A program made the position numbers and the translations under genes. From positions 1 to 26,852 of IMG/VR virus record IMGVR_UViG_2778261537_000020: a DNA stretch of 26,852 nt; one strand, given 5' to 3'. The notes below the pieces were generated by a model. That model was not told the origin of the DNA, searched no databases, and saw nothing but the letters and a program-made list of their open reading frames with translations. This DNA is from a virus (lineage: Duplodnaviria > Heunggongvirae > Uroviricota > Caudoviricetes). This document shows positions 1 to 24,782 of this stretch, piece after piece. Numbering within the stretch: position 1 is the first letter of the stretch; each line of letters starts with the position of its first letter.

Positions 1-186
1 TCAGGCTTCCAGCAACGATCTTTCTTCCTCCGTTGCGATTTCCAGATCTACAGCATCCTGCAGTGGCGCAATATACTCACTGAATTCCTGGATGTAGAAC
101 TGTGTGGTGACGGTCTTCCAGCTATTCGGCTCCTGCTGTATTGAAGCATACCAGGCTATTTCAATATCGCTATGCTGCGGCAGCAT
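1..186 (-). pseudogene. tfaX: Tail fibre assembly protein fragment (tfaX-like); C-terminal part matches the Tfa at 2698..3279 but ends in a premature stop at window position 1-3
   Basis: 61-aa ORF containing ...[25 protein letters not shown], closely matching ...[29 protein letters not shown]... of the full Tfa; nt 1-82 align with 2773-2855; TGG to TGA relative to the intact copy; unrelated N-terminus. Confidence 0.5.
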
Positions 187-242
187 TTAACCCCTTGTAA
201 TTCATTGCCATAATTGATTTAATTCACAAATAAAACTATAAC

Positions 243-910
243 ATGGTGAAATTAATGAAAAAAAACACAGATGATGGGGCTAAAATTTACACACCACTTA
301 CCCTAAAGCTTTATGACTGGTGGGTTTTGGGAGTATCAAATCGGCTTGCATGGGGATGTCCTACAAAGGAACACCTTCTTCCACACTTTCTGGAACATTT
401 AGGTAACAACCATCTGGATATTGGTGTTGGAACTGGGTTTTACCTTACTCACGTACCTGAGAGTAGTCTGATATCTTTAATGGATTTGAACGAAGCTAGC
501 CTGAACGCGGCATCTACAAGGGCTGGGGAATCAAAAATTAAACATAAAATTAACCATGATGTTTTTGAACCTTATCCCGCGGCGTTACATGGTCAATTTG
601 ATTCCATTTCCATGTTTTACCTTCTTCACTGCCTGCCTGGAAATATATCTACAAAAAGCTGTGTAATACGCAATGCGGGCAGGCCTTAACTGACGATGGA
701 ACTCTATACGGAGCCACAATTCTTGGCGATGGAATTGTGCACAATAGCTTCGGTCAAAAACTGATGCGCATTTACAATCAGAAAGGCATCTTTTCAAACA
801 CAAAAGATTCCGAAGAAGGCTTAACACATATACTCTCAGAGCATTTCGAGAATGTTAAAACCAAGGTTCAAGGTACTGTAGTAATGTTTTCCGCTTCAGG
901 GAAAAAATAG
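243..910 (+). pseudogene. ybcY: SAM-dependent methyltransferase (ybcY-like), frameshifted near nt 650-690
   Basis: ORF 243..689 carries a DIGVGTGFY glycine-rich SAM-binding motif; the +1 frame continues plausibly (...TDDGTLYGATILGDGIVHNSFGQKLMRIYNQKGIF...SASGKK*) to a stop at 908-910. Confidence 0.55.
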
Positions 911-1275
911 CATCCAACCGCAGCACGTTCTTGCATAAGGCGTGTCTGCGGTTTTTCAACTATTCAGATACATCACTCCCATCACATTCATTCCTCCGCA
1001 TCATAGGCATATAGGCTATATCACCTTGATATTTTTCTTCTTCAGATAAAAACTGTTATCTATGTATACTTTTAAACCCAATCCGTGTAGAGTCTCTGCA
1101 TAAGATAGTTTGCAGTTGACACTTCAGCTTGCGCCATAAACCGCCTGATTTTTGCCGCCACCTGTTAGCATTCCTGTATACCTGAAACGACAATGTTTAT
1201 CTACGAACTTTAAGAACACCCAGGATAAAAATTGTCAACTATATCATATATAACACATTACTAATTCGAGGCTAT

Positions 1276-1389
1276 ATGAACAGCATACTGATAATCACTT
1301 CGCTCCTTATCATATTCAGCATTTTTAGTCATGCTCTAATAAAATTAGGGATTGGCATATCCAATAACCCAGACAAAACCGATGTATAA
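1276..1389 (+). CDS. Small hydrophobic 37-aa ORF ([37 protein letters not shown]), possible small membrane protein
   Basis: GAGG Shine-Dalgarno 5 nt upstream of the ATG; predicted single transmembrane helix; sits in an AT-rich island; not in the supplied ORF track because it is under 60 aa. Confidence 0.25.
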
Positions 1390-1457
1390 GTCAACATATC
1401 CTGAATCAGACATACAATATCGCAATGAAAATCAATAATATTTTAAGGAATATCTTC

Positions 1458-1691
1458 ATGAAATCAAAAGACACCCTAAAGTGGTTCCCTGCGCAGCTTC
1501 CTGAAGTAAGAATTATCCTAGGGGATGCTGTAGTGGAAGTAGCAAAACAGGGAAGACCTATCAATACCAGAACATTGCTTGATTACATTGAAGGAAACAT
1601 AAAGAAAAAGTCATGGCTGGATAACAAAGAATTATTACAAACAGCGATATCAGTTCTTAAAGACAACAAAAATTTAAATGGTAAAATGTAA
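1458..1691 (+). CDS. Hypothetical protein (77 aa from Met-12 with AAGGA RBS; 88 aa if started at 1425)
   Basis: ORF 1425..1691 in the track; AT-rich codon usage; no family recognised. Confidence 0.35.
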   Translation: MKSKDTLKWFPAQLPEVRIILGDAVVEVAKQGRPINTRTLLDYIEGNIKKKSWLDNKELLQTAISVLKDNKNLNGKM

Positions 1692-1920
1692 TATAATAAA
1701 CTTACTTTCTTATCATTTTTCCACTTTAACAACATTTTGCTCCACTTTTCCACGACCAAACAACTTGAAATCTGGTTAAAATAACACGCAACACTATTCT
1801 TCTTCCTTGAGTCCGCCCGGAACTCGAAAAACAAACCGAGTTAAGGCCATTTTTCACAAAATCGATTTTGGGTCTCACCAAAATTACGGGGTTGCATACG
1901 CATTCGTTTATTTTCGAACG

Positions 1921-1940
1921 TGTACATACAAATATGTACA
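1921..1940. promoter_or_regulatory. Perfect 8-bp inverted repeat TGTACATA-caaa-TATGTACA about 70 bp upstream of the serine recombinase; candidate recombinase binding/crossover site or operator
   Basis: Palindrome read directly; an additional ATATGTACA half-site lies at 1976-1984. Confidence 0.35.
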
Positions 1941-2009
1941 AAAATAATCAAAATTATTTTCTGAGATGCATTATGATATGTACACCAATTTCGTATAGAA
2001 GATCTCACT

Positions 2010-2600
2010 ATGTCTCGAATTTATGCTTACTGTCGGGTATCAACTCTGGAAAAGACAACCAAAAATCAACGTCGGGAAATCGAAAGTGCAGGTTTTAACA
2101 TCAAATCTCAGCAAATAATTGAAGAACAAATTAGCGGCTCAGCAGCAACCAGTGAGCGTCCTGGTTTTAACCAGTTGCTTGATCGACTGAAAAGAGGTGA
2201 TGCATTGATTGTCACAAAACTGGATCGCCTCGGTTGTAATCCAATGGATATCAGTAAAACGGTGGAACAACTGACCAAAGCAGGTATCAAAGTGCATTGC
2301 TTAGCATTGGGGGGCGTTGACCTGACCAGTCCACCTGGAAAAATGATGATGCAAGTAATTTCAGCAGTCGCTGAATTTGAGCGAGACCTTTTACTTGAGC
2401 GTACTCATTCAGGGATATTAAGAGCACGGGGCGCAGGAAAGCGATTTGGTCGCCCACCTGTGTTAAATGATGAACAAATACAGAGGGTACTAGAGCAAAT
2501 TAAGTCAGGTATAAATATAAGTGACATTGCCCAAGAATTCAAAACCTCGCGGCAAACCATTTTAAGAGCTAAAGCAAAAAATCAGACACCTGATATATAA
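2010..2600 (+). CDS. Small serine recombinase (resolvase/invertase family) with C-terminal HTH
   Basis: 196 aa; N-terminal YAYCRVST (catalytic Ser), resolvase-like core (...[10 protein letters not shown]...), C-terminal ...[40 protein letters not shown]; occupies the pin-like position next to tfa but is not obviously Pin/Gin-like. Confidence 0.8.
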
Positions 2601-2697
2601 AAATAATCTCGGTGTGAGATTCCTTACGTTTTCCAAGCCCCCCTTCCTAGCCTTAAATGGAAAGATACTTCTAATTATAGAATTTATATATCTTACC

Positions 2698-3279
2698 CTA
2701 CGGTAGGGCTGGCCATTCAATATCCGGTGCAGTTGATGTATCAACACGGTTCAGCAACACCCGATACTTTTTCCAGGCTTCCAGCAACAAGGTTTCTTTC
2801 TCCGTTGCGATCTCCAGATCCACAGCATCCTGAAGCGGCGCTATATGCTCACTGGCTACCTGCATCAGGCTGTTTTTTGTTTCTTCCGCCTCCCGGATCC
2901 GGAACAGTTTTTCTGCTTCCGTATCCTTCACCCAGGCTGTGCCGTTCCACTTCTGAAACTCCCCTTCCGGGGATAACCAGGTGACATTTTCCGGTAATGA
3001 GCCGAGTTCAGAAATAAATAACGCGTCGCCGGAAGCCACGTCATAAACCGTTTTACCCCGATGATCTTCAACGAGATGCCACGATGACTCATCACTGTTG
3101 AAAACAGCCACGAAACCAGCCGGAATATCTGGCGGTGCAATATCGGTACTGTTTGCTGGCAGACCTGTATGAGGCGGAATGTATGCGTCACCTTCACCAA
3201 TAAATTCATTAGTTCCGGCCAGCAGATTATAAATTGTTATGGTCCGTGGTTGTTCACTCATTCTGAAATCCATGTTCAC
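2698..3279 (-). CDS. tfa: Tail fibre assembly protein Tfa (lambda Tfa-like)
   Basis: 193 aa; ...[52 protein letters not shown]... matches remembered lambda Tfa almost residue for residue. Confidence 0.85.
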
Positions 3280-3281
3280 CT

Positions 3282-4184
3282 CTACTTAATATCAGAGACA
3301 GAATATTGTTTATTGAGCGTATGGGTGTGAGCACCAATAACGATGCTACTTCCGTGGCTATGTGCGCCAGAGATGACATTACCTACAGGATTTTCTGGAT
3401 TAATCCGGTGTATATGCGAACCAGGGCGAAACCGGTTATTAGCCTGATGTTGTATCAGTACATCATCAGCCTGATGTTCAGGGTTAATACAGACCTGCCC
3501 GGAACGTGAGCAATACGTCCGATAATCGCCGCATCCAATATATTTAGTATCCGCATAACGGCAAACAGAATTACCCGGACAGTATGCATATGTGCCAAAT
3601 ACTGCCGACTGGCGGGATTGTGCGTATTCCCAGTTAATTGATTCTGTTTTTTTATTAAAGTTATCCCATGCCTGCTTCATCTGCCGGGCAACGCTTTCAA
3701 ACGGCACCTGACCACATCCGGCTCCCATTGCAGGGAATACCACCGTCTTTATTTTCCTGTCTGTCGTTGCGTTTTTATTGTGCTGAAAGATAGCAAGTAG
3801 AGCTGCCCAAGTTGCGTTATATACAGCGTCTGTTCCGTCAATTGTCAACGGAACACGCATTGTTGGCGCATGTACCAGCCAGGGGTGATAATTATGCCCC
3901 GTTTCAATAACAAATGCAGAACCTACAGGCTGCTCGCCGAGATATTCACGAAGAATATGATTCTGAACGCGGGCCTGTAGCTGAGAACCGAAGAATGTGG
4001 TAATGGCGGCATCAACACCGCCATCCATCAGGCCGAAACTATTTGCCGCACTTACCATGCAGTCAAATTCTCTGATTGTTTCAAATGGCTTTCCGACAAT
4101 ATTCACATTATCTGCATTTGCAAATACCCGCTTAAATGCTTCAGCCATTTCGGTTACTGGTGCAGAAAGAATGAGCGTAATCAT
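3282..4184 (-). CDS. Macro-domain protein (ADP-ribose-binding/processing fold) with Cys-rich region and His-x-His tail-fibre-tip-like C-terminus
   Basis: 300 aa; macro signature ...[19 protein letters not shown]...; C-terminus ...[20 protein letters not shown] resembles HxH repeats of Stf tips; start overlaps the stf stop (ATGA) and its stop lies 3 nt before tfa. Confidence 0.6.
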
Positions 4185-5683
4185 GCAAGCCTCACAATAT
4201 AGTTAAATGCGATGTTTTTGACGGTGTTTTCCGCGTTACCAGCAGCGTTAACGGTGATGGTGTGTCCATGTGAGCCAATCGCAACCGAGTGCGTATGAGC
4301 ACCAATACCGACAGTATGTGCGTGAGCACCTGCAGATGCAGCTGTGCCGCTGACACTATGAGTGTGCGCTCCTGCAGCACTTGTATTCACACTGGCCGCA
4401 GACACTACCTTATGTACTGACCCATTTTGTGACCACTGGCTGACTGCTGATGCGCCTGTGACACTATGAGTATGGTTTCCGGCACTTGCGGCTGTACCGC
4501 TCACACTGTGCGTATGCGCCCCGATGTTATTCGTGGATTTAGTGCCGTAATCAAACGACGATGTGGTTTTCGTCCCCAAATCCGTACTGGATGCGCTGGC
4601 GCTGTGGGTGTGCGATTTAATGCCGTCCTGTTCCTGAGACAATACGGCCCGACCACTGGCAGGTTTGCCCTTAATCGTCCAGCCACGCATATCAGGGATC
4701 ACGCCTGACGGATAAGCGGCTGCAAGTTTCGGGTATGCAGATTTGTCAAAAGTCTGCCCCTGCATCAGGACATAACCAGACGGAACGGTATCTGATGGCC
4801 ACGGGATTGGTGCACCGACTGGATAAAACTCTGCAGGAGGATGAGCCGAGGTGTAAAGCTGCGCCCACGGCGACCAGTTTGCGTCGGTCGTATCCCGTCG
4901 TGAACGAATAAATGCCGGAGCATGAGCACCGCTTGTACCACTCCAGCCGATGAGTAACTCACCTTCGCCAACGGCTGTCATCCCTTTCAGGTGAATGATA
5001 TTTCCATACGTTGTTGGATATCCGTTGTTATACACCTCGTATAACTCAAGACCTGCTGCCCCCTGCGTATTGTCTGTCAGCGCGGCTACCCGACCTTTTG
5101 AAGCCAGATTAACTGATGATACTGCTGTTCCACCTGACGGTAGCGCCCCGATCTCTGATGCCGTTGGCTTATTTCTGGAGTTATAGTCCCTTCGCCAGCC
5201 AGGTGAATAATCTGTTCCGTGATTAATATAGGTAAACTGGGCGTTGGTTGTTCCGCCACCGCTGGATGTGGTCGGAGTGGTAATGCGGATCGTCATCGCT
5301 GACTTTATCCCCATTACTTCAATGACAGCTCCGGCGAGATGAATATTACCGCAGCCAGTATCAGTAATGATTTTATTATTGCCATAAGACCAGGAACCCT
5401 TGCACATCCAGTATGGATGGTTAAATGCTCCCTGAGAATCCAGCCACTCGATAAACTGTGCAGTCGTCCAGTTTCCTGTTGTTGTGCTTACTGACCCACC
5501 GAAGGCACGGCAGGCACCAATATTTTTCGTAAAGGTGTCTTTGCCAGGGATATCCGCACCGTTCTGATCTTTCTGCAGACGTTTCTCAGCATTGTCATTG
5601 GCTGCTTTTACTGCCTTTGGCGTTGCCGCCAGCGTTTCAGACGTGCTGTTGGTCGCGCTGCTCACCCTTGCGGGCCATGTCAT
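4181..5683 (-). CDS. stf: Side tail fibre protein Stf, distal portion only (5'-truncated by deletion/fusion to H)
   Basis: 500 aa; begins at the internal conserved ...[19 protein letters not shown]... motif and ends ...[31 protein letters not shown] as in lambda Stf; the N-terminal half of Stf is absent. Confidence 0.8.
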
Positions 5684-8162
5684 ACACTGCCTTCATCATC
5701 TGTGGACCTGGCAGACCATTCGTACCGTCGTTCTGAATCACCACGTGATTGTTCTGATTAAAATTAATGCCTTCAGCCCGCCGCATCTGCGCCGGACTTC
5801 CGGCACCGCCCACATAACCACCTTCCGCATAGCCCCGCATCAGGCGGTACAGGTTGCCGACACCAATCCGGCTGGTTGCCTCCTTCGTGAAGACAAATTC
5901 GCCACGGTGAACAATCCCCGCTGGCTCATATTTGCCGCCGGTTCCCGTAAATCCCCCGGTCGCAAAACGGAATTTCGCCGCAGCGGCCTGAATGGCTGTA
6001 CCGCCTGACGCGGATGCTCCACCACTGGCAGCACCGCCAATGGCGCTGCCGATACTCCCGACAATCCCCACCATTGCCTGCTTAAGCAGAATTTCTGTCA
6101 TCATGGACAGCACGGAACGGGTGAAGCTGCGCCAGTTCTGCTCACTGCCGGTCAGCATCGCCGCCATATTCTGTGCAATACCATCAAAGGTCTGCGTGGC
6201 TGCACTTTTAACCTGCGACATACTGTCCGTGGCGCTCTCTTCCCACTCACTCCAGCCGGACTTCAGGCCTGCCATCCAGCTCCCGCGAAGCTGGTCTTCA
6301 GCCGCCCAGGTCTTTTTCTGCTCTGACATGACGTTATTCAGCGCCAGCGGATTATCGCCATACTGTTCCTTCAGGCGCTGTTCCGTGGCTTCCCGTTCTG
6401 CCTGCCGGTCAGTCAGCCCCCGGCTTTTCGCATCAATGGCGGCCCGTTTTGCCCGTTGCTGCTGTGCGAATTTATCCGCCTGCTGCGCCAGCGCGTTCAG
6501 GCGCTCCTGATACGTAACCTTGTCGCCAAGTGCAGCCAGCTGGCGTTTGTACTCCAGCGTCTCATCTTTATGCGCCAGCAGGGATTTCTCCTGTGCAGAC
6601 AGCTGGCGACGTTGCGCCGCCTCCTCCAGTACCGCGAACTGACTCTCCGCCTTCCACAAATCCCGGCGCTGCTGGCTGATTTTCTCATTCGCTCCGGCAT
6701 GCTTCTCCAGCGTCCGGAGTTCTGCCTGAAGCGTCAGCAGGGCAGCATGAGCACTGTCTTCCTGACGATCGCCCGCAGACACCTTCACGCCGGACTGTTT
6801 CGGCTTTTTCAGCGTCGCTTCATAATCCTTTTTCGCCGCCGCCATCAGCGTGTTGTAATCCGCCTGCAGGATTTTCCCGTCTTTCAGTGCCTTGTTCAGT
6901 TCTTCCTGACGGGCGGTATATTTCTCCAGCGGCGTCTGCAGCCGTTCGTAAGCCTTCTGCGCCTCTTCGGTATATTTCAGCCGTGACGCTTCGGTATCGC
7001 TCTGCTGCTGCGCATTTTTGTCCTGTTGAGTCTGCTGCTCAGCCTTCTTTCGGGCGGCTTCAAGCGCAAGACGGGCCTTTTCACGATCATCCCAGTAACG
7101 CGCCCGCGCTTCATCGTTAACAAAATAATCATCCTTGCGCAGATTCCAGATGTCGTCTGCTTTCTTAAACGCAGCCTCTGCCTTAATCAGCATCTCCTGC
7201 GCGGTATCAGGACGACCAATATCCAGCACCGCATCCCACATGGATTTGAATGCCCGCGCAGTCCTGTCTGCCCAGGTCTCCAGCGTGCCCATGTTCTCTT
7301 TCAGGCGGCGGGTCTGGTCATCAAACCCTTTCGTTGCGGCCTCGTTCGCCGCCTGCAATGCCCCGGCTTCATCGCCGGAACGCTGCAACTGAGCAACATA
7401 CGCAATCTGCTCCGCCGTCACGTTATGGAACTGGCGTGCCATCGCCGTCAGCCCCGACGTCGGGTCTGTGGTCAGCTTCCCGAAGGCTTCAGCGACCTTG
7501 TCCACCTCCACGCCGGATGCAGAGGAGAAACGCGCCACACTCTGGCTGATGGACGCAATCTGAGCCTCACCGCTTACCCCCGCCTTAACCAGTGCGCTGA
7601 GTGACTCGCTGGTCTGGTTAAACGTCAGCCCTGCCGCCTGCCCGGCTCTGGACAGGACCAGCATACGATCTGCCGTCAGTCCCGCCTGATTGCCGGAAAG
7701 GACCAGCGTTTTGTTGAAATCGGACAGGGTTGAGTTGCCCTGATACCAGGCATACGCCAGCGCACCGGTCGCCACCGCCAGCGAGGTGGCCCCCACCATC
7801 GGCAGGGTGATCGCACCGGCAAGCCCCCTGAACATGGGGATCATCCCGCCGAAGGAGTCCTTCACCTGCCCCCCCTGTTGCAGCAGGATCAGCCACGGAC
7901 TTTGCCCGCCTGCAAGCTGCGTGGCCACGTCGGTGAACTGTGCAGGCAGCATACGCATGGCGGCTTTATACTGCCCGACGGAAATCCCCGCTTTCTGTGC
8001 AGCCAGCGCCTGTCGGCTCAGCGACTGTTCAACGACTGCCGCTGTTTTTTTCGCATCACTTTCCGTACCGGAAAAATGACGCCTGACTCTGGCCATCTGC
8101 TCGTCAAATCTGGCCGCATCCAGACTCAAATCAACGACCAGATCGCCTACCGGTTCAGCCAT
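5637..8162 (-). CDS. H: Tail tape measure protein H (lambda gpH-like), diverging over the last ~8 residues
   Basis: 841 aa; [30 protein letters not shown]... essentially collinear with remembered lambda H up to ...[10 protein letters not shown], then EQRDQQHV*. Confidence 0.9.
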
Positions 8163-9045
8163 ACCGGACTCCTCCTGCGATCCCTTCTGATACTGTCATC
8201 AGCATTACGTCATCCTCCGTCATGTCCGCCACATCCGGGGAAGCGGGGACATCCGGCGTCCATTTGAGGCCAAACGGCGTCTCTTTGTCGCCAAATTTAA
8301 GATACTGCTCCTCCCCGCAGTGCGGGCAGGCAACATGAAAACGCATAAAATGCGGGGATTCACTGGCTGCACGCTCAATCTGGCAGGTGCCTCTCACTTT
8401 GGGCGTGGAGCCACGGATGGACTTTGGCCAGACCGAGCCTTCAATACGTTTGTCGCCAAGGAACGTCGGAGAGCCTTCCTGTTCAATATCCTCATCAAAG
8501 GCAGCAAGTTCATCATAACCCGCCACATCCACCGACTTTTCACGGTAGTTTTTTGCCGCTTTACCGCCCAGGCACCAGAAGCCACGACCATTGGAAAAAC
8601 GCTTCATAGTGAGCGTGTTATCCCGGTGCTTTTTGCCATACCACGGAGCCAGCGCCAGCAGCGACGGAATATCGCGGATGGTCGGCTCAACGTGGGTTTT
8701 CATAAAGTTCTCGGCATCACCATCCGTCGGCAACCAGATAAGGGTGTTGCGCTGCTTATGCTCTATAAAGTAGGCATAAACACCCAGCAGCATTTTGGAA
8801 TAACCGACACGGGCAGACTTCACCACATTCACCTCACGGATGTAGTCGCTGCCCATCGCATTCATGATGGCCCGCTGAAAGGGCAGTGTTTCCCAGCGCC
8901 CTTCCTGGTATGCGGATTCTTTTGGGAGATAGTAATTGGCATCCGCCCATTCAACGGCGGTCTGTGGCTCCGGCCTGAACAGTGAGCGAAGCCCGGCGCG
9001 GACAAAATGCCGCAGCCTGTTAACCTGACTGTTCGATATATTCAC
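8155..9045 (-). pseudogene. A: Terminase large subunit A, N-terminal ~265 residues then out-of-frame tail (deletion remnant)
   Basis: MNISNSQVNRLRHFVRAGLRSLFRPEPQTAVEWADANYYLPKE... matches lambda gpA up to ...FGLKWTPD, then unrelated 31 aa and a stop 4 nt before the H start; lambda gpA is ~641 aa. Confidence 0.85.
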
Positions 9046-9565
9046 TCAGCAACCCCGGTATCAGTTCATCCAGCGCGGCTGCTTTGTTCATGGCTTTGAT
9101 GATATCCCGTTTCAGGAAATCAACATGTCGGTTTTCCAGTTCCGGAAAACGCCGCTGCACCGACAGGGGGATCCCGTCGAGAATACTGGCAATTTCACCT
9201 GCGATCCGCGACAGCACGAAAGTACAGAATGCGGTTTCCACCACTTCAGCGGAGTCTCTGGCATTTTTCAGCTCCTGTGCGTCGGCCTGCGCACGCGTAA
9301 GTCGATGGCGTTCGTACTCAATAGTCCCTGGCTGGAGATCTGTCTCGCTGGCCTGCCGCAGTTCTTCAACTTCCCGGCGCAGCTTTTCGTTCTCAATTTC
9401 AGCATCCCTTTCGGCATACCATTTTATGACGGCGGCAGAGTCATAAAGCACCTCATTACCCTTGCCACCGCCTCGCAGAACGGGCATTCCCTGTTCCTGC
9501 CAGTTCTGAATGGTACGGATACTCGCACCGAAAATGTCAGCCAGCTGCTTTTTGTTGACTTCCAT
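9020..9565 (-). CDS. nu1: Terminase small subunit Nu1
   Basis: 181 aa, MEVNKKQLADIFGASIRTIQNWQEQGMPVLRGGGKGNEVLYDSAAVIKWY... matches lambda Nu1; 26-nt overlap with A as in lambda. Confidence 0.9.
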   Translation of the reverse strand: MEVNKKQLADIFGASIRTIQNWQEQGMPVLRGGGKGNEVLYDSAAVIKWYAERDAEIENEKLRREVEELRQASETDLQPGTIEYERHRLTRAQADAQELKNARDSAEVVETAFCTFVLSRIAGEIASILDGIPLSVQRRFPELENRHVDFLKRDIIKAMNKAAALDELIPGLLSEYIEQSG

Positions 9566-9741
9566 TGTTCATTCCACGGACAAAAACAGAGAAAGGAAAC
9601 GACAGAGGCCAAAAAGCTCGCTTTCAGCACCTGTCGTTTCCTTTCTTTTCAGAGGGTATTTTAAATAAAAACATTAAGTTATGACGAAGAAGAACGGAAA
9701 CGCCTTAAACCGGAAAATTTTCATAAATAGCGAAAACCCGC

Positions 9742-9753
9742 GAGGTCGCCGCC
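9742..9753. other. cos: cosN cohesive-end sequence (reverse complement of lambda GGGCGGCGACCT), with cosB-like region between it and the Nu1 start
   Basis: Window 9731-9770 gaaaacccgcgaggtcgccgccccgtaacctgtcggatcg is the reverse complement of the remembered lambda right-end/left-end junction ...CGATCCGACAGGTTACG|GGGCGGCGACCTCGCGGGTTTTC. Confidence 0.7.
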
Positions 9754-9954
9754 CCGTAACCTGTCGGATCGCCGGAAAGGACCCGCAAAAATGATAATAA
9801 TTATCATCTACATGTCACAACGTGCATCTACGCCATCAAACCACGTCAAATAATCAATTATGACGCAGGTATCGTATTAATTGATCTGCATCAACTTAAC
9901 GTAAAAACAACTTCAGACAATACAAATCAGCGACACTGAATACGGGGCAACCTC

Positions 9955-10149
9955 ATGTCAACGAAGAACAGAACCCGCAGAACAACAACCCGCAACATCC
10001 GCTTTCCTAACCAAATGATTGAACAAATTAACATCGCTCTTGAGCAAAAAGGGTCTGGGAATTTCTCAGCCTGGGTCATTGAAGCCTGCCGTCGGAGACT
10101 AACGTCAGAAAAGAGAGCATATACATCAATCCAAAGTGATGATGGATGA
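9955..10149 (+). CDS. ylcI: Small phage right-end ORF, YlcI-like (DUF3950-type)
   Basis: 64-aa ORF MSTKNRTRRTTTRNIRFPNQMIEQINIALEQKGSGNFSAWVIEACRRRL...; lies in sequence matching the lambda right arm adjacent to cos. Confidence 0.5.
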   Translation: MSTKNRTRRTTTRNIRFPNQMIEQINIALEQKGSGNFSAWVIEACRRRLTSEKRAYTSIQSDDG

Positions 10150-10508
10150 ACATCCCGGTTTCTTCCACCATCGCACCGGAAAAGCGACTATGAGGGTAAC
10201 CCTGCGTCTGTCAGCACAGTAAAACCCGGTGTGCATCGTTTTTGATTATTCCCGCACACTCACGCAGAAGGAATTCCCCGTCGGGCTACGGTCATGGTTA
10301 ATGCGGGAATACGGCGACGATACAGCGCAGCTAAAAGGGTAATGGACAGATAGAGCGGTTTATTTCATTCCACAGGATTCTGAGTGCCCCCCTCCTCCAA
10401 TAGGCTGAGCATCCACCTATATAGTTTTAATTTTCATCAATCCATTTAACTATCGTTTAATTGTTGTCACATAGGATTCTGCCGTTTTTAACAATGCAGG
10501 ATAATAAG

Positions 10509-10802
10509 ATGAAAAAAATGTTGTTTTCTGCCGCTCTGGCAATGCTTATTACAGGATGTGCTCAACAGACGTTTACTGTTGGAAACAAACCGACAGCAGT
10601 AACACCAAAGGAAACCATCACCCATCATTTCTTCGTTTCGGGAATTGGACAGGAGAAAACTGTTGATGCAGCCAAAATTTGTGGCGGCGCAGAAAATGTT
10701 GTTAAAACAGAAACCCAGCAAACATTCGTAAATGGATTTCTCGGTTTTATTACTTTAGGCATTTATACTCCGCTGGAAGCGCGTGTGTATTGCTCACAAT
10801 AA
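10509..10802 (+). CDS. bor: Bor outer-membrane lipoprotein (serum-resistance moron)
   Basis: MKKMLFSAALAMLITGC lipobox; 97 aa from Met-17 of the track ORF with AGGA RBS; matches lambda Bor. Confidence 0.85.
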   Translation: MKKMLFSAALAMLITGCAQQTFTVGNKPTAVTPKETITHHFFVSGIGQEKTVDAAKICGGAENVVKTETQQTFVNGFLGFITLGIYTPLEARVYCSQ

Positions 10803-10833
10803 TTGCATGAGTTGCCCATCGATATGGGCAGCT

Positions 10834-11295
10834 CTATCTGCACTGCTCATTAATATACTTCTGGGTTCCTTCCAGTTGTTTTTGCATAGTGATCAGCCTC
10901 TCTCTGAGGGTGAAATAATCCCGTTCAGCGGTGTCTGCCAGTCGGGGGGAGGCTGCATTATCCACGCCGGAGGCGGTGGTGGCTTCACGCACTGACTGAC
11001 AGACTGCTTTGATGTGCAACCGACGACGACCAGCGGCAACATCATCACGCAGAGCATCATTTTCAGCTTTCGCATCAGCTAACTCCTTCGTGTATTTTGC
11101 ATCGAGCGCAGCAACATCACGCTGACGCATCTGCATGTCAGTAATTGCCGCGTTCGCCAGCTTCAGTTCTCTGGCATTTTTGTCGCGCTGGGCTTTGTAG
11201 GTAATGGCGTTATCACGGTAATGATTAACAGCCCATGACAGGCAGACGATGATGCAGATAACCAGAGCGGAGATAATCGCGGTTACTCTGTTCAT
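10834..11295 (-). CDS. Rz: Rz i-spanin
   Basis: ...[59 protein letters not shown]... matches lambda Rz; likely start at Met-5 of the track ORF. Confidence 0.9.
10893..11075 (-). CDS. Rz1: Rz1 o-spanin lipoprotein, embedded in the +1 frame of Rz
   Basis: 60 aa [60 protein letters not shown]; lipobox plus proline-rich region, matches lambda Rz1. Confidence 0.85.
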
Positions 11296-11789
11296 TGCTG
11301 ACCCCACAAACAGATTTCACGCTCAATCTCACGACGAGTCATGAGACCTTTCCATTGCTTACCGCCAGCATATGTCCAGCGACGTAGCTGATCACATGCG
11401 CCTTTGATATCGCCCTGGTTTATTTTGCGAAGAAGCGTCGATGTTCTGAAATTGCCAGCACCCACGTTGTAAACGAATGAGTAAAGAGCGCCGCGCATTG
11501 TTTCCGGTATATCGACTTTGATGTACGGGTTAATTTGTCTGGCGACCGTGGCAAGGTCTTTATTCAGGAGGGCTTTGCATTCTGCTTTGGTATACGTTTT
11601 ACCGAGCATGATGTCTTTTCCTGTATGCCCGTGACATACAGTCCATACACCAACAATATCTTTGTATGGTATGTAGCTGACACCTTCCAGACCATCGTTA
11701 CCACTTGGGCCAGTGATTAACACTGATGCTATAGCAATTGCTCCGCCACCAATAGCAGCAGCAACGGCTTTTCGTAATGATGGAGGCAT
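11292..11789 (-). CDS. R: SAR endolysin (phage 21 R21-type lysozyme)
   Basis: 165 aa; N-terminal Gly/Ala-rich signal-anchor-release segment [20 protein letters not shown] followed by a T4-lysozyme-like domain. Confidence 0.85.
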
Positions 11790-12004
11790 TATTCACCTCT
11801 CGCAGCCTTGCGCTTATCTTCTTTAATCTTGAAATAAAGGTTTGTCAGGTACGTCAGCAGGCCAAATACCAGGCTACCCAGCACACCTATTGCTGCCCAC
11901 TGTGAGGGCGTGACTTTATCGAGCAGCTGTAAAAACCAGTAACCGGCACTACCTGCTGAGGTGCCATAGGCGACACCCGTTGTTAACTTATCCATGGATT
12001 TCAT
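11789..12004 (-). CDS. S: Pinholin (phage 21 S21-type), dual-start motif MKSMDK
   Basis: [71 protein letters not shown]; stop overlaps the R start (TAATG); track ORF carries an extra 15-aa upstream extension. Confidence 0.85.
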
Positions 12005-12130
12005 AACCCCACCTCGCAGACAAAGCGGGTGTAAATTGAGGGAATACAACGTATCGCAAAAAAGCAGAAACGTAACAGACTCGGAGTCAGTGAATAACTC
12101 AGGTATTGGGTTATCAGCTAATATCGAGAC

Positions 12131-12165
12131 TCAAAAAATGGAAAAACCCGCTCGACGGCGGGTTT
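12131..12165 (-). terminator. Intrinsic-terminator-like hairpin on the minus strand about 100 bp upstream of S (candidate tR'-like element)
   Basis: aaacccgc-tcgacg-gcgggttt stem-loop at 12144-12165, followed on the minus strand by a U-rich tract (ttccattttttga). Confidence 0.35.
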
Positions 12166-12593
12166 AAGCTGTGTGACGAAGTAACCACTCTTAACAGCAT
12201 AACCAATTTTTTACGTACGTAAACCACAAAATGATATTTGCGAGAATGCTACCGAGTATTGAAAACACCACTACAAATACATAAGCAAATCTCAACAAAT
12301 AACCAACAAATAATTTCCAGTGTTATTTTTAGCCGATTTAAATTGAACCTTCAAATTACAGAGCACTTATAAATAACAGCCGTTAATATAAATTGGCTAA
12401 TAGATTTATTTTTATTCAGCCAAGATCCATGAATAGGATTCGATAGAAAAAAGTTCAGATAAAAATAGAGATCTACTTCACAAATCAAACGAGAAACCAA
12501 AACTTACATCTTGAAATAATCACATTGATTAGATGAATATTTATCGCGCAGTGACATCATTTTTTAATAATAGTTCAAAAAAAAGGGCTCACG

Positions 12594-13676
12594 ATGAAAA
12601 AATTAACAGTGGCAATTTCTGCTGTAGCTGCATCAGTACTGATGGCGATGTCTGCTCAGGCAGCTGAAATTTATAATAAAGACAGTAACAAGCTGGATCT
12701 ATATGGGAAAGTTAATGCCAAGCACTACTTCTCCTCTAATGATGCAGATGATGGTGATACTACTTATGCCCGTCTTGGCTTCAAAGGTGAAACCCAAATC
12801 AACGATCAACTGACTGGTTTCGGTCAGTGGGAATATGAATTCAAAGGCAACCGCGCTGAATCTCAAGGCTCCTCCAAAGACAAAACCCGTCTTGCATTTG
12901 CAGGCCTGAAATTCGGGGACTACGGCTCAATCGATTACGGCCGTAACTACGGTGTAGCATATGACATCGGTGCGTGGACTGACGTTCTGCCAGAATTCGG
13001 TGGCGATACCTGGACCCAAACAGATGTGTTCATGACTGGTCGCACCACTGGTGTTGCAACTTATCGTAACAACGACTTCTTTGGTCTGGTTGATGGTCTG
13101 AACTTTGCTGCTCAGTATCAGGGTAAAAATGACCGCACTGACGTAACTGAAGCTAATGGTGATGGTTTCGGTTTCTCCACTACTTATGAGTATGAAGGAT
13201 TCGGTGTAGGTGCAACCTATGCTAAATCTGACCGCACTAATAATCAGGTTATCTACGGTAACAACAGCCTGAATGCATCTGGTCAAAATGCTGAAGTATG
13301 GGCAGCTGGTCTGAAATATGATGCGAACAACATCTATCTGGCTACCACCTATTCTGAAACCCAGAACATGACTGTTTTTGGTAATAACCATATTGCCAAC
13401 AAAGCACAAAACTTCGAAGTAGTTGCACAATATCAGTTCGACTTCGGTCTGCGTCCGTCCGTTGCTTACCTGCAATCTAAAGGAAAAGACTTGGGTGCGT
13501 GGGGTGATCAGGACCTGGTTGAATATATTGATGTAGGTGCAACCTATTACTTCAACAAAAATATGTCCACTTTTGTTGATTACAAAATCAACCTGATTGA
13601 TAAGAGCGATTTCACGAAAGCATCTGGCGTTGCTACCGATGATATCGTTGCTGTAGGTATGGTTTACCAGTTCTAA
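12594..13676 (+). CDS. nmpC: Outer-membrane general porin, NmpC/Lc (OmpC/OmpF family), apparently intact
   Basis: 360 aa with signal peptide [30 protein letters not shown]... and C-terminal ...VAVGMVYQF porin signature. Confidence 0.9.
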
Positions 13677-13691
13677 TTTGATTACTAAAAG

Positions 13692-13725
13692 ATATGTTGC
13701 GGGAGGCTTTGCCTCCCCAACATAT
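13692..13725. terminator. Long imperfect palindrome/hairpin immediately downstream of the porin gene
   Basis: atatgttgcgggaggc-ttt-gcctccccaacatat read directly. Confidence 0.3.
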
Positions 13726-13813
13726 AAGTGGCTCCCTCAAGCCACTTCCTTTAGGAGCACAACCTTGCTTCTAACTATATAAACCTTCTGTTATATATTA
13801 CCCTTTATTTTTG

Positions 13814-13847
13814 GGGGCGTTGCAACGCCCCATTTTTAATAATTTTT
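13814..13847 (+). terminator. Rho-independent terminator (perfect 18-bp palindrome followed by a T-run) for the porin transcript
   Basis: ggggcgttgcaacgcccc followed by atttttaataattttt. Confidence 0.45.
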
Positions 13848-13864
13848 AGTAAACAATTGGCATA

Positions 13865-14263
13865 TTAATTAGAGTTATTAACAACGATATCCATCTCTAA
13901 CCGGATATCTAATGCCATTAACATCCCTTCAATTATGCCCTCAGCCTTCTGTAACCTTTTCCCGATATAACCATCAGAGCAGCAATGCTTACCTGCCAGT
14001 GACATGAATGTCATACCGACTACATAATAATCTACTAATAAATCGTGCAAATCGCTGTTGTTCTTTTTCAGACGGGCCATGCACCCGCAAATAATCATCG
14101 CGTCATCGTCACAACATTGCGGGCGAGATTTTACTTTTGAAGTAATTAATCCCTTAAAACCGGCGGCAATGGACGACCAGGTCACATCTTCATGATTATT
14201 AGCCGCCCACGCTCCCCAACGCTCAAGAACCATCTGAATATCACGCATCAACTTACTCCACAA
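13865..14263 (-). CDS. Q: Late-gene antiterminator Q (DLP12 QuuD-like)
   Basis: 132-aa ORF (...[24 protein letters not shown]...[16 protein letters not shown]...), Cys-rich zinc-binding region; sits between rusA/ylcG and the lysis cassette. Confidence 0.8.
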
Positions 14264-14333
14264 AAATCAGACCAGCACGCCAATTACAAGCAAAAATCAA
14301 CAAAACAGTATTAGTTGATTGTTATCTCTGACT

Positions 14334-14471
14334 TCATACTCCTGCTCCTGTCAGGGTTTTGGCGTAATTCTTCAGTATTCGGTAATCGGTCAAAACAGAA
14401 CCGGGGAAACGATATAAGCGCAGATGCCCCCAGCGGTGGCGAAGAAGTTCTGCCATATAAAACTCAAACAT
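14334..14471 (-). CDS. ylcG: Small protein YlcG-like (46 aa)
   Basis: Hand translation [45 protein letters not shown]; ATG overlaps the rusA stop. Confidence 0.4.
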   Translation of the reverse strand: MFEFYMAELLRHRWGHLRLYRFPGSVLTDYRILKNYAKTLTGAGV

Positions 14472-14833
14472 CATTCATTCCCCATTTCGGTGATGGTCAG
14501 TTCCAGCCTCCCACCTTTGGTAACAGGCATCTTCACAACGCGGTAATCAACGACCTGAGCATCATCCAGCCAGAAACCTGCTTTGGTGAGTGCGTCAAAA
14601 GCGGCTTTTTGCAGATTATCCAGGTCACGGCGACGGCGATCCGGCATGTGGCACTCAATGCGGATTTTCACAGGCATAGCCAGGCCGATATCCAGCATTG
14701 CGTTTTTAATGATTCGGGCGACGTTATCGCGGTATGCCTGCCCCTCTGCACTGACGTGCGTGCGCCCGCGATTATGGCGGTAATAGCGATTATTGCTCGG
14801 AGGCCAGGGTAATGTGATACTGTAGGTATTCAC
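14471..14833 (-). CDS. rusA: Holliday junction resolvase RusA
   Basis: 120 aa [97 protein letters not shown]... Confidence 0.9.
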
Positions 14834-15120
14834 GCCTTAATAACCCCCTCTTTCAGCCAGATAACCTGTGTTCTCGCCATACCTTCCAGCGCGCATTCTT
14901 TTGCATATGCAGCATCGACAAAATGTGTGCGGCGGTCGATTTCGTCGTGGCAGGCAGAACATGCAATGGTGGCAATCAGGTCTGGCGGTTTGATACCGGT
15001 ACCGCACAATCCAGCCAGCCGGATATGTGCCAGTACAGACGTTTCAGAATTGCCATTACATACGCCAGGGATTCTTACCTGGCATTCCCGACCACGCGCT
15101 GCTTTTCTCAAATCAGCCAT
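14830..15120 (-). CDS. ybcO: YbcO-like nin-region protein (Cys-rich, putative nuclease, DUF1364-type)
   Basis: [42 protein letters not shown]...; 96 aa from the internal Met of the track ORF. Confidence 0.6.
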
Positions 15121-15283
15121 GATTCCTCCTTGCTGCCAGTCGCAACCATTTTTTATCAACCAGGCTAGCGGTATATCCGAGCAGTGTTGGTATTTCGGAT
15201 GGCTTCAGCTCAGGCTTACGCTTACGACGATTTGATACTCTGTAGATGTGTCCGTTCATGACACGAATAAGCGGTGTAGCCAT
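15113..15283 (-). CDS. ninE: NinE
   Basis: Hand translation [56 protein letters not shown]; overlaps the ybcN stop and the ybcO start; not in the ORF track (under 60 aa). Confidence 0.6.
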   Translation of the reverse strand: MATPLIRVMNGHIYRVSNRRKRKPELKPSEIPTLLGYTASLVDKKWLRLAARRNHG

Positions 15284-15738
15284 TACGCCTCCTGCTTGTC
15301 GCGGAGCAGCTGGAACTCGCAGCTCTGCGGAATAGTCAGGTGGCAGCCAATATTCACCGCCCAGGCTTCAACCTTACACAGGAAGACATACATCTCTCCG
15401 GTATCAAGATCGGAGGTATGGCGTAACGACTGGATAGTGGTGATATCACCGGTTACGACATCAACCAGGTCTTTGGTTTCATAACCGAGATATGTGTGTT
15501 TGAGAGCATCTTTTACCCAAGCTGGAGTGGCGAACGTTTTACCCCTGCTGATGAGGTATTCACTGATTTCGCTGTACCACATGTGGCTGAGTGCATTCTG
15601 GGAAAGACTGCGTTTCTCACGCCACGGTTTAAGCACCATGCGAAAGCATTTGCCCTCCTCCAGATAAGGCTGGATCTGCCGACCGATAGCGGTGAAGTTG
15701 CCGCGATGTAATTTGATGCCGTCTTGTGAGAGGTTCAC
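15283..15738 (-). CDS. ybcN: YbcN-like nin-region protein
   Basis: 151-aa [64 protein letters not shown]... Confidence 0.6.
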
Positions 15739-15952
15739 GCTTCACCTCCGCAGAGGTCAAACGCTAGATGCAAAGAATTGCAGGTGCATTTCTGCATCTG
15801 TGAAGGGAGAAGAGAGTTTGGATTGTATGTGCGCATAAACGTCCCCGTTTAGCGCAGAAGTCACCGGAGTTGTTCAGGCTCCGGTGACATAATTATGCCG
15901 TGTTGATTTCCCAAAATCAAAATCGATAGAATTGCTCCTTCTTAAAACACTT

Positions 15953-16750
15953 TTACTCTCTGGAAGCTTTTCTTATCTCTCTTGGTGTTATATTAAAACG
16001 ATTATGAAATCTTTCAGTAAAACGAGAAGGACACTTATAACCATTTTCTCTGGCAATCTCGCTTATAGGTTTTACCGTCGTTTGTATAGCAGACAACGCA
16101 TTATTTAACCTCACATCGTCCAGTATACTTTGGAAACTTACCCCCTCGCTTGCTAGACGGCGATGTAATGTAGAAACAGAAATGTAGAGATATCGAGCAA
16201 CCTTGTTTGCTGTCCATTTTGTGCCGGGTTCGGATAGCAGCAGGTTATAACAACGACTTATCAATGATTGTTTACTATATGATAAAAGTAAATGATTAAC
16301 ATGATTCACTCCTAACGAAAGTAGAACGCCCATTGCTAAGTGCTCCTGAATTTTAGTTGAGAAGCCTCGGGAAACAGATGTTTTTAGTTGCTCCCAACAA
16401 TATATTAACTCAGGATTCTGAGGTAAAAAGAAACTTGTTTTGTTACGTATTTGATCAGTTACCGTATAAAGTTTTTGGAAACTCTCAATTAAATCAATGG
16501 GTAAGTAAAGCATTTCTGCAAGATAAAGCCCTGCTTCAGGATAATTCTCAATATAAAATTCATAACCACAAGGAAATAATATTATTTGATTATTATCAAC
16601 AGTTAAAGTATGCGTCTCCCAATTGATAACTTTCTTTCCCTGACGGATACGACACAAAGCTGGCATAAGAGGCTTAACCCTATGAATCTCATGATGTTTA
16701 TGCATCCGTATTTCTTCGATCTTTAAGTTAGTCTTACCTCTTGCCAGCAT
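15953..16750 (-). CDS. ybcM: AraC/XylS-family transcriptional regulator (YbcM-like)
   Basis: 265 aa; C-terminal AraC-type HTH (...[45 protein letters not shown]...[32 protein letters not shown]); AT-rich gene. Confidence 0.8.
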
Positions 16751-16759
16751 ACTCTCACC

Positions 16760-17311
16760 CTACTTTATCTCATAAACTGGTGTTATCTCAGCGGTTGCGA
16801 TTTTATTAGCATTAAGCATATAACCAACTAACGCTCCGCTGGAGTTAGAATCTACAGGAATCTTTTCAGTTTTTAGAGCCCATACTTTAAACTGGTAATG
16901 ATGTGGTTTATCTCCTTTAGGAGGACATGCGCCACCAAACCCAGCATAGCCAAAATCATTTCGGCCTTGAACAGCACCAGTCGGCAGTTTTGTTCCATCA
17001 CGTCTCCCTGCATCAACGGGCAAATATGTTACTGTTGCTGGAATATTAACAACAGTCCAATGCCACCAACCACTGCCTGTAGGTGCATCTGGATCATATA
17101 CAGTTACGGCAAAGCTTTTGGTACCTTCAGGAACACCAGACCAGGTTAATGAGGGCGATGTATTACCACCTTCACACCCAAATCCAGAAAAGACATGAGA
17201 CGTTGTAAGTTGCTCTCCTGTTTTTATTTCATTACTAGTGACCTGAAATGCTGCAGCCTGCGCAGAAAATGTTATGAATGCCAATACAGTTGAAACGATA
17301 AGTGTTTTCAT
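16760..17311 (-). CDS. ybcL: Secreted PEBP/RKIP-family protein (YbcL-like)
   Basis: 183 aa with signal peptide MKTLIVSTVLAFITFSAQA; ...FAVTVYDPDAPTGSGWWHWTVVNIP... and ...GFGGACPPKGDKPHHYQFKVWAL... PEBP motifs. Confidence 0.75.
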   Translation of the reverse strand: MKTLIVSTVLAFITFSAQAAAFQVTSNEIKTGEQLTTSHVFSGFGCEGGNTSPSLTWSGVPEGTKSFAVTVYDPDAPTGSGWWHWTVVNIPATVTYLPVDAGRRDGTKLPTGAVQGRNDFGYAGFGGACPPKGDKPHHYQFKVWALKTEKIPVDSNSSGALVGYMLNANKIATAEITPVYEIK

Positions 17312-17775
17312 AAAAACCTCTTTGTTATGACCTATCGTTATTTTATTTGATATTCCTTTATCTCATTATGCATAAAGGCGCAATGTTCATGCAAAAGCAA
17401 TCACAATTGTACCCCCAACCCAATTATTTGCCACAATATACACAAAGCACATTGATACTATCTAAAAACTCTGCTTTATTATTAGTAATACCTACGAAAG
17501 TCGGTGTTATTTTTTAACCTACCATTCAAAATACGTGACATACACCATTTTGCTCATAATAATTTGTCACGTATTTTCAGTATTTGAATCTGCGACCAAG
17601 AGTTCTCACCTAACAAATGATTAAGATTGTATAGCTCATTTACTACCCCAATACAGCCGTACAAAACTCGCTTGTGGGAGCAAACAAAGTAATTACCCAT
17701 TAAGTTTCGTCAAAGATAATTAATTCTGTCTTGCACTTTATCACCATAGCATAACTTAAAATCCGAGATCATTAT

Positions 17776-19302: not shown

Positions 19303-19556
19303 GGTGACACCTGCTAACGTATGCTTTTATAAACCTTAGTGGTGGGATATAATTTTTGTTTAATTTTTATTTAAAAAGACAATTAAGGTCACATTATCTT
19401 GAATATACAACAATAATGGTATTGCATTTTTCTTACGCGATAATCTTGAAATCACAAAAGAATACATAAAAAATAAAGACATTAACAAAAAGCATAAAAC
19501 GAGGCTCATATAAATATAAGAGCCTCCATATTTTAGTCGTTTAGAAACAAATTATT

Positions 19557-19889
19557 TTAATGTGGTGTGCTTCGTGACAATAAATTAATAACCAACACAC
19601 CGGCACAAATCAACATCATGCCTATAATGGCTGGCAGGTCCAGCCGTTGGCCGAAAAATCCCCATGACAGTAAGCTAATCAGGACAATACCGACTCCTGA
19701 CCAGATAGCATAAGCAATCCCTGTAGGAATATAAGCCAGCGTCTGAGCTAATAACCAGAATGATGCACAATAACAAATAATTGTACCAACAGATGGCCAT
19801 AACCGTGTAAAACCTTCTGAAAACTTCATTAAGGTTGTACCAATGACCTCTGCAAGTATTGCACCACCAAGATAAATATAAGGGTTCAT
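19557..19889 (-). CDS. emrE: Small multidrug resistance efflux transporter EmrE
   Basis: MNPYIYLGGAILAEVIGTTLMKFSEGFTRLWPSVGTIICYCASFWLLAQTLAYIPTGIAYAIWSGVGIVLISLLSWGFFGQRLDLPAIIGMMLICAGVL...; 110 aa from the internal Met of the track ORF. Confidence 0.9.
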   Translation of the reverse strand: MNPYIYLGGAILAEVIGTTLMKFSEGFTRLWPSVGTIICYCASFWLLAQTLAYIPTGIAYAIWSGVGIVLISLLSWGFFGQRLDLPAIIGMMLICAGVLVINLLSRSTPH

Positions 19890-19956
19890 AGCATATTCTT
19901 TCCTGTTCAAACTGGAGAGAATTGTACTACAGTTTGAACTCAACTCACCTGTTTCA

Positions 19957-22509: not shown

Positions 22510-22578
22510 AATTGACTCCTTTAGTTTGAATTGACTGTTAAGTTGATTGCTTATTGTTAAAGAGCGTGAAATGGAAAT

Positions 22579-22809: not shown

Positions 22810-22836
22810 AACAACCTCCGTGGTTAATTTGAATCA

Positions 22837-22870: not shown

Positions 22871-22878
22871 ATTTTCGT

Positions 22879-24777: not shown

Positions 24778-24782
24778 AACGG

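Follow-up and report, generated by a model that had tools for sequence, protein, structure and literature searches.

In bacteriophage lambda, the tail genes lie in the order H-M-L-K-I-J-lom-stf-tfa, and the same order is found in an intact prophage of E. coli SI-NP020. Full-length lambda Stf has 774 aa, and the lambda record used here splits it into orf-401 and orf-314. Lambda PaPa, although viable, carries a frameshift in stf (PMC3945230), a natural inactivation which leaves the distal part of stf (orf-314) and tfa open. DLP12 (qsr') of E. coli K-12, like other cryptic lambdoid prophages, has had its virion genes deleted and has kept its regulatory, lysis, and cargo genes, and Rac and Qin end in an stf/tfa/pin remnant (PMC3945230, and general knowledge). 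That defective prophages of this kind can serve as a recombination reservoir has been described as a general principle (De Paepe 2014).

The DNA analyzed here, called the window, is a stretch of 26,852 nucleotides (positions 1 to 26,852 of IMG/VR virus record IMGVR_UViG_2778261537_000020). It is a lambda-like prophage of E. coli at the DLP12 site, where it adjoins ompT and appY; the minus strand carries its late genes. Compared with lambda, it lacks everything from the C-terminus of H through stf codon 515, and it has a macro gene between stf and tfa, where lambda has none. As in lambda PaPa, stf has been inactivated naturally and its distal part and tfa are open; however, the cause is an 8.2-kb deletion that also took essential tail tip genes, rather than a frameshift. 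DLP12 occupies the same site, with ompT/appY on one side and intD on the other, and it has quuD, the porin gene, essD, rrrD, rzpD, bor/iss, nohD, emrE, ybcK/L/M/N/O, and rusA in common with the window prophage. The fate of the two is the same, although the window prophage is far younger and less eroded: H is almost complete, stf keeps its distal half, and the macro gene and tfa are still present, as are the immunity, replication, and red regions. Relative to its intact relative it has just two clean deletions, the exact junctions of which are in no complete E. coli genome.

The Prophage and Its Intact Relative

The intact prophage of SI-NP020 (L001) aligns with the window at 99.95% identity except for two clean gaps, the differences being 12 mismatches and one 1-bp gap across about 26.4 kb. 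This is the undeleted arrangement that the first-pass annotation had proposed to look for. Three blocks of the window are collinear with it (window 1-5662 with L001 3001-8663, 5663-8249 with 16904-19490, and 8245-26448 with 28431-46634), and the block ends meet at 5662|5663 and at ~8249. In the RefSeq annotation of the SI-NP020 prophage, ompT/appY are found on one side, intD at the opposite end, and DLP12-type cargo in the prophage, as expected of this site. The features around the two joins are listed in Table 1.

Table 1. Features at and near the two deletion junctions (window coordinates)
Feature	Position	Strand	Length	Remarks
Pin-type serine invertase gene	2010..2600	+		Pfam Resolvase and HTH_7; adjoins tfa; no part in the junction
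tfa, tail fibre assembly	2698..3279	-		Pfam Caudo_TAP, E 3.7e-44; intact
Macro-domain ORF	3282..4184	-	300 aa	Pfam Macro, E 5.9e-19; phrog_2613
stf' ORF	4181..5683	-	500 aa	Pfam Phage_fiber_2, Collar, Phage_fiber
H' (truncated tape measure)	5637..8162	-	841 aa	Pfam TMP_2 and Tape_meas_lam_C
Deletion junction 2	5662..5663	-		5662, last stf-derived base; 5663, first H-derived base (plus-strand coordinates)
A'-'T fusion ORF	8155..9045	-	296 aa	Pfam GpA_ATPase; product of deletion 1
Deletion junction 1	8245..8250	-		about 8.94 kb gone; GGGG run at the join

The first-pass annotation had described the join between H and stf as a second scar, and the first scar that this wording presupposed was located by the same alignment at ~8249|8250. 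The sequence lost there begins within terminase A, whose 3' part is gone, and ends within T, which has lost its 5' part. By tblastn, the fusion ORF created in this way combines residues 1-269 of terminase A with residues 103-144 of T, from its C-terminal end.

The Junction between H and stf

At 5662|5663, 8,240 bp (L001 8664-16903) are absent and have no counterpart in the window. The interval comprises the final 20 codons of H, the genes M, L, K, I, J, and lom, and codons 1-515 of the 1,008-codon stf. When M, L, K, I, J, Lom, and Stf residues 1-513 of the intact prophage were searched by tblastn, no trace of them was found in any frame of the window, so that neither the N-terminus of Stf nor the tail tip genes can be concealed in a different frame. 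Nor are H and stf natural neighbors: M-L-K-I-J-lom lie between them in lambda, the SI-NP020 prophage, and the active phage PhiR68_2. The first-pass annotation had put a deletion scar, with H fused to the middle of stf, at 5630-5690 and had listed the same six genes and the 5' half of stf as missing; its range correctly brackets the join, and the loss from stf amounts to 515 codons.

The flanks of the join are thus collinear with an undeleted relative from which only the interval between them has gone, and no repeat, IS, recombinase site, or microhomology is present at the endpoints. Base-by-base comparison of the two parental flanks gave 0 bp in common, so the join is blunt; neither direct nor inverted repeats were found at the endpoints of junction 2, and no repeat family touches them. 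Deletion mediated by repeats or microhomology, as well as IS-mediated deletion, can therefore be ruled out. Matches to promoter and terminator consensus sequences between 2500 and 6200 are at or below the chance level, with zero at the junction.

Another way to produce such a join would be the action of a site-specific recombinase, either a Pin-type invertase or a large serine recombinase of the YbcK type, at a pseudo-site in H. A Pin-type invertase gene does adjoin tfa, and the breakpoint in stf falls in a conserved Phage_fiber_2 repeat; the invertase crossover sites of Mu, P1, and e14 are likewise located inside a fibre gene. However, no gix/hix-like core (AAACCNNGGTTT, with at most one mismatch) occurs within 4.7 kb of the junction. 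The window contains only two matches to it with one mismatch allowed (at 858 and 22890), which is the chance level, and neither is near 5662, so that a crossover core of the AAACCNNGGTTT type is missing from the endpoints. Neither endpoint carries an inverted or direct repeat, and the other two deletions known at this locus are equally featureless. A recombinase origin of the join is therefore highly improbable.

Accordingly, 5662|5663 almost certainly marks the loss of 8,240 bp by illegitimate joining from a lambda-like E. coli prophage at the DLP12 site, and nothing was found that speaks against a deletion. Since the ends share no homology, the event was illegitimate and not a recombination between repeats. 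It must have taken place when the phage was already resident in the chromosome, because the remaining genes cannot build tails. One end of the deletion is situated 20 codons short of the H stop codon and the other at codon 515/516 of stf; the C-terminus of H, the tail genes from M to lom, and the anchor domain and proximal shaft of Stf dropped out between them. The two breaks would then have been joined non-homologously. The molecular route is proposed here, a blunt join being not diagnostic of mechanism. Together with the deletion of ~8.9 kb from terminase A to T, this event leaves a prophage unable to make heads or tails, in which the genes for immunity, replication, Q, and lysis, the cargo, and the stf'-macro-tfa end have been retained intact. 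The scar is an ordinary step in the known decay of a resident virus to a harmless remnant.

Reading Frames across the Junction

H' residues 1-833 (window 8162..5664) are true H. They align without gaps to lambda H at 97% identity and to H of SI-NP020 at 100%, and this collinearity, together with the TMP_2 and Tape_meas_lam_C domains, marks the protein as a lambda-type gpH. The codon at 5663-5661 straddles the join, and the reading frame ends with 8 out-of-frame stf codons (EQRDQQHV) and a stop codon (5662..5637), just as the first-pass annotation had noticed in stating that H departs from lambda and stops 8 codons later. A complete gpH C-terminus is therefore lacking, residues 834-853 (ARDEIQTQMRDGGLFSGGGR) having been swapped for EQRDQQHV. 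As a direct consequence of the deletion, H reads on into stf in the wrong frame and terminates.

The stf' ORF is offset by +1 relative to H' and overlaps it by 47 nt. Its genuine stf part (5662..4181) equals residues 516-1008 of intact Stf, which has 1,008 aa, and its first 7 codons, MTWPARV, are H sequence in another frame. The ATG (5683..5681) is a chance codon within H; the 500-aa ORF that it opens is in reality the last 493 residues of Stf, with the attachment domain missing. It had been pointed out before that the ORF following H lies in another frame and at once enters an internal Stf motif, and this motif matches residues 365-394 of lambda orf-401, the N-terminal half of Stf. The C-terminal part is 69% identical to lambda orf-314, and the match to phrog_295 covers positions 407-794 of 794. 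The ORF has the features of the distal shaft and tip of Stf: a Phage_fiber_2 repeat (cut at profile position 11), HxH fibre repeats, and a Collar domain, with the gene for the Tfa chaperone next in line. On the other hand, the N-terminal attachment domain (Pfam phage_tail_N), which occupies residues 1-134 of intact Stf, is missing from the 500-aa ORF.

H' and stf' are thus probably non-functional remnants, pseudogene fragments of one deletion event. In annotation, neither H' nor the 500-aa "tail fibre" should be labeled as an intact gene. A weak Shine-Dalgarno-like motif, AAGG, is located 6 nt upstream of the stf' ATG, and the ORF itself is oriented like the late operon and situated downstream in it; judging from this arrangement, some expression of stf' upon induction may occur.

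The Retained stf'-macro-tfa End

Downstream of the scar, the frames of stf', macro, and tfa are all open. The macro ORF is situated between stf and tfa, outside the deletion, and is annotated in SI-NP020 as a macro domain-containing protein; it has no counterpart in lambda or in PhiR68_2, the latter giving no match to window 3274-4179. The tfa gene is 94% identical in DNA to that of lambda, and its RefSeq product in the intact relative has 191 aa, corresponding to window 2699-3274. PhiR68_2 is 99% identical across window 4497-5662 and 96% across 1-3273, and these stretches form long homology arms on either side of the variable fibre tip and the macro gene.

The first-pass annotation called this end an intact-looking cassette. 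The intact look is due to the recent date of the deletion and does not testify to selection. With only 12 mismatches and one 1-bp gap relative to the intact prophage, open frames are to be expected without selection. It could still be proposed that stf', macro, and tfa have been kept by selection, either because they donate receptor-binding modules to phages that enter the cell or because a soluble piece of the fibre, or a macro-domain function, is expressed and helps the host. Open frames and the arms of homology to PhiR68_2 are in keeping with this idea, the chance ATG with its AAGG could permit translation of stf', and recombination of lambda with the stf/tfa regions of the defective prophages Rac and Qin has been demonstrated at about 2e-6 (PMC3945230). 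However, with so few differences from the intact relative the frames would be open in any case, and in the sequencing run ERR9804773 the gap takes 574 bp more of stf'. Without an anchor domain stf' cannot be a fibre on its own, and H', stf', and the macro ORF gave zero matches in PADLOC, a search for defence systems. Moreover, a reservoir role serves phages and not the host, which would make it a by-product and not a selected function. Retention by selection is accordingly unlikely. Less likely still, and in our view improbable, is the idea that the fusion is a new expressible gene, encoding an anchorless, Tfa-assisted, receptor-binding Stf fragment that is made together with the macro protein and helps the host (for example by occupying the cell's own receptor and so keeping out related phages), or that the cassette is a donor in real host-range switches of lambdoid phages entering the cell.

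A reservoir role is plausible by analogy with other defective prophages. Since long arms of homology still connect the distal stf-macro-tfa region with active phages, genes could pass from it back into phages in the way demonstrated for Rac and Qin, and the region might serve as a reservoir for host-range recombination, a principle that has already been published.

Occurrence in E. coli Assemblies

In an index of public assemblies, 104 blocks contain this exact H' protein, junction-specific tail included. Of the H'-carrying contigs, 24 were read; their gene neighbors are identical, and the flanks of carrier contigs match those of the DLP12-site prophage. Fourteen stretches fetched from draft assemblies are 99.98-100% identical to the window in DNA, and both junctions are present together, base for base, in each of the 14 aligned stretches that reaches them. 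No contig with only one of the two deletions was seen among the contigs read, each of which carries both. The carriers are all draft assemblies, namely NCBI GCA records and Logan short-read assemblies of SRR/ERR runs from different projects, and some of the contigs exceed 300 kb; GCA_900478675.1 and GCA_014815405.1 are two of the carrier isolates. Neither junction occurs in the complete RefSeq E. coli genomes (0 of 5,426), and an exact 40-mer scan of species-representative genomes gave zero matches for the junction, a result that speaks for the representatives only.

This distribution bears on whether the junction could have arisen during assembly, when a draft genome was mis-joined or collapsed. 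Its absence from every complete RefSeq E. coli genome and its restriction to draft and Logan short-read assemblies would fit such an origin. However, the parental sequences have no common repeat able to cause a collapse, and the same junction recurs base for base in many independent assemblies and projects, contigs of more than 300 kb included. The chance that it is an artefact is negligible. Since both junctions are base-identical in every aligned stretch that reaches them, the scar at junction 2 is natural and common to one E. coli lineage.

One assembly differs from the others. In ERR9804773, a larger gap replaces junction 2, removing the scar and extending 574 bp further into stf', and the endpoints of this third gap are as featureless as those of the other deletions at the locus. 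With two featureless deletions of 8-9 kb and a third, larger gap in one strain, the locus provides a clean, datable case of stepwise prophage grounding, in which each loss can be set against an intact relative at 99.95% identity. The two junctions are markers specific to one E. coli lineage and are thus potential typing targets.

Deletion between H and stf

The undeleted arrangement exists: a megablast search of 5,426 complete E. coli genomes with window positions 1-25000 located it. A prophage of E. coli SI-NP020 (NZ_AP024130.1) gives 100% query cover at 99.9% identity, in three pieces across 42.2 kb. appY and ompT border it at one end and intD at the other, placing it at the site of DLP12, the defective lambdoid prophage of K-12. 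In the RefSeq annotation its late region is complete and lambda-like (nohD, terminase, portal, head genes, Z, U, V, G, T, H, M, L, K, I, J, lom, a 1,008-aa tail fibre, a macro-domain protein, and tfa). Alignment with the fetched prophage stretch (L001) yields three collinear blocks (see table), which place the H-stf junction (junction 2) exactly between 5662 and 5663, with 8,240 bp missing. The last 20 codons of H, the whole of M, L, K, I, J, and lom, and stf codons 1-515 are lost. The first-pass annotation had listed M to lom and the 5' half of stf as absent; all fall within this gap, and tblastn detects no trace of them. When every intact late-region protein is searched by tblastn, the window retains solely Nu1, A 1-269, T 103-144, H 1-833, and Stf 514-1008, with nothing further concealed in another frame. 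An Stf N-terminus in another frame, which might have refuted the deletion, was sought by tblastn over the window and is not present. The observation made from the sequence is thus confirmed and accurately described; the deletion reading is supported, with refinements, and this kind of feature is already known.

Features of the two scars and alignment blocks against the intact prophage stretch L001
Feature	Window position	Strand	Remarks
Alignment block 1	1-5662		L001 3001-8663, >=99.95% identity
Alignment block 2	5663-8249		L001 16904-19490, >=99.95% identity
Alignment block 3	8245-26448		L001 28431-46634, >=99.95% identity
Pin-type invertase gene	2010-2600	plus	downstream of macro-domain ORF and tfa
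tfa, intact			downstream of macro-domain ORF
Macro-domain ORF, 300 aa	3282-4184	minus	downstream of stf'; phrog_2613
stf' ORF, 500 aa	5683..4181	minus	different frame from H', 47-nt overlap with H'
H' tape measure ORF, 841 aa	8162..5637	minus	Pfam TMP_2 and Tape_meas_lam_C
A'-'T fusion ORF, 296 aa	8155-9045	minus	product of deletion 1
Junction 1	about 8249|8250 (8245-8250)		GGGG run at join

The late genes concerned are read from the minus strand. The truncated tape measure protein (H') is 97% identical to lambda H across residues 1-833 without gaps. After residue 833 it ends in EQRDQQHV and a stop, where lambda H continues for 20 residues; this agrees with the divergence and stop 8 codons later that had been read from the sequence. 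The adjoining distal Stf remnant (stf') begins with MTWPARV and, as had also been noticed, enters at once the conserved internal Stf motif, which corresponds to residues 365-394 of lambda orf-401 (the proximal Stf half). Its C-terminal 215 residues are 69% identical to lambda orf-314 (the distal half). The ATG at 5683..5681 and the first seven codons are H sequence in the +1 frame; the fusion thus produced the "gene start" of stf' incidentally, with AAGG 6 nt upstream of this ATG. In Pfam, intact Stf carries phage_tail_N at residues 1-134, which stf' does not have, and the breakpoint falls inside a Phage_fiber_2 repeat (residues 506-546 in intact Stf; in the remnant the match begins at profile position 11). 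In PHROGs, stf' corresponds to no more than positions 407-794 of phrog_295, a tail fibre family of 794 positions.

Side-by-side comparison revealed that the parental flanks share no base at the join: the stf side reads ...GCGCTGCT|TAGC, the H side ...ACGGG|CACCC, and the window ...GCTGCT|CACCC. Neither endpoint is touched by a direct or inverted repeat family. An invertase crossover core (AAACCNNGGTTT) is likewise absent near the junction, the two 1-mismatch matches in the window being distant and at chance frequency. Consensus matches resembling promoters or terminators in 2500-6200 do not exceed shuffle expectation, and none is at the junction. Judged from the sequence, junction 2 is best described as a putative illegitimate, homology-independent joining of two breaks.

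Distribution of the scars

Queries of 201 bp and 1,501 bp centred on junction 2, and of 301 bp on junction 1 (terminase A to T), give alignments broken at the junction in all complete E. coli genomes, with cover always below 80%; the junction 2 40-mer was not found among GTDB species representatives. The exact H' protein can derive from junction 2 alone, because its C-terminal 8 residues are junction-specific. Indexes of public assemblies list it in 104 blocks, with the same neighbours in the 24 contigs read. The A'-'T fusion and the 500-aa ORF, searched as proteins, agree with this picture, both among NCBI drafts and among independent sequencing runs assembled in Logan. The 14 fetched contig stretches are 99.98-100% identical to the window, and the junction is present wherever a stretch reaches one. 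An assembly artefact was rejected, since independent draft and Logan assemblies carry identical junctions; this recurrence indicates that the scar is natural and inherited within one lineage. The lineage is without a complete RefSeq genome.

Junction 1 corresponds to a gap of about 8.94 kb relative to the SI-NP020 prophage, from about terminase A codon 270 to about T codon 103. The two junctions always co-occur in the contigs read, and a relative, Logan contig ERR9804773 (L010), has deletion 1 with a larger gap removing the second scar. There, window 5089-7219 is absent, a further 2,131 bp that includes junction 2 and extends 574 bp further into stf'. The join (3276-3277) has flanks 100% identical to the window and a 2-bp overlap; what remains is 327 aa of H and 306 aa of stf. 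This gap is most simply a third, nested deletion, likewise featureless; it could also be an independent larger deletion in an ancestor with deletion 1 alone. The L010 gap shows ongoing erosion at the H'/stf' site.

Prophage decay and possible exchange at the fibre end

The locus is ordinary decay of a lambda-like prophage at the DLP12 site. Head and tail genes were lost in two clean steps, which spared immunity, replication, Q, lysis, cargo genes, and the distal fibre end. In K-12 this process has produced the older DLP12, Rac, and Qin; of these, Rac and Qin likewise terminate in stf/tfa/pin remnants (PMC3945230), as is also generally known. The 3' cassette had been called intact-looking: the frames of stf', the macro-domain gene, and tfa are indeed open, but this is not evidence of selection. 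Over about 26.4 kb, 12 mismatches and one 1-bp gap are all that separate the element from its intact relative, so decay has had no time to set in.

The cassette was also proposed as a possible reservoir for host-range recombination with infecting phages. Lambda takes up DNA from the stf/tfa regions of Rac or Qin at about 2e-6 per phage, mainly via Red-beta (De Paepe et al. 2014, PMC3945230). The active phage PhiR68_2 is 99% identical to the window at 4497-5662 and 96% at 1-3273. These long homology arms, which lie on either side of the macro gene (missing in PhiR68_2) and the variable tip of HxH repeats, make fibre-end exchange with incoming phages plausible. Such exchange is a by-product of homology, and the general mechanism is published and not new.

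The macro-domain ORF is placed exactly between the stop of stf and the start of tfa and is missing from lambda and from the otherwise near-identical PhiR68_2; it has no PADLOC match. The HxH fibre repeat of the Stf tip recurs in its C-terminal ~30 residues, and positions 3322-3356 have 74% DNA identity to 4290-4324 in the tip, suggesting that the protein may be derived from the fibre or be associated with it. Distal stf (4290-4530) contains a tandem-like array of 40-42-nt units encoding this repeat (family D1). The sole part of distal stf unaligned to PhiR68_2 is 4350-4496, as would fit a varying number of repeats at the fibre tip.

Beyond the Pin-type invertase gene, ydfK and ynaM homologues, and a methyltransferase lies a tfa remnant (2-93, in the minus-strand stretch 1-186), which has the same orientation as intact tfa and is 85% identical to it at 2774-2865. 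The fibre genes contain no gix/hix-like crossover core, so an invertible segment, if the fibre once had one, looks defunct. At the window's end, ~400 bases (26449-26852) are unmatched in the SI-NP020 prophage, the alignment reaching 26448; the early-left (exo-distal) region has a mosaic boundary here.
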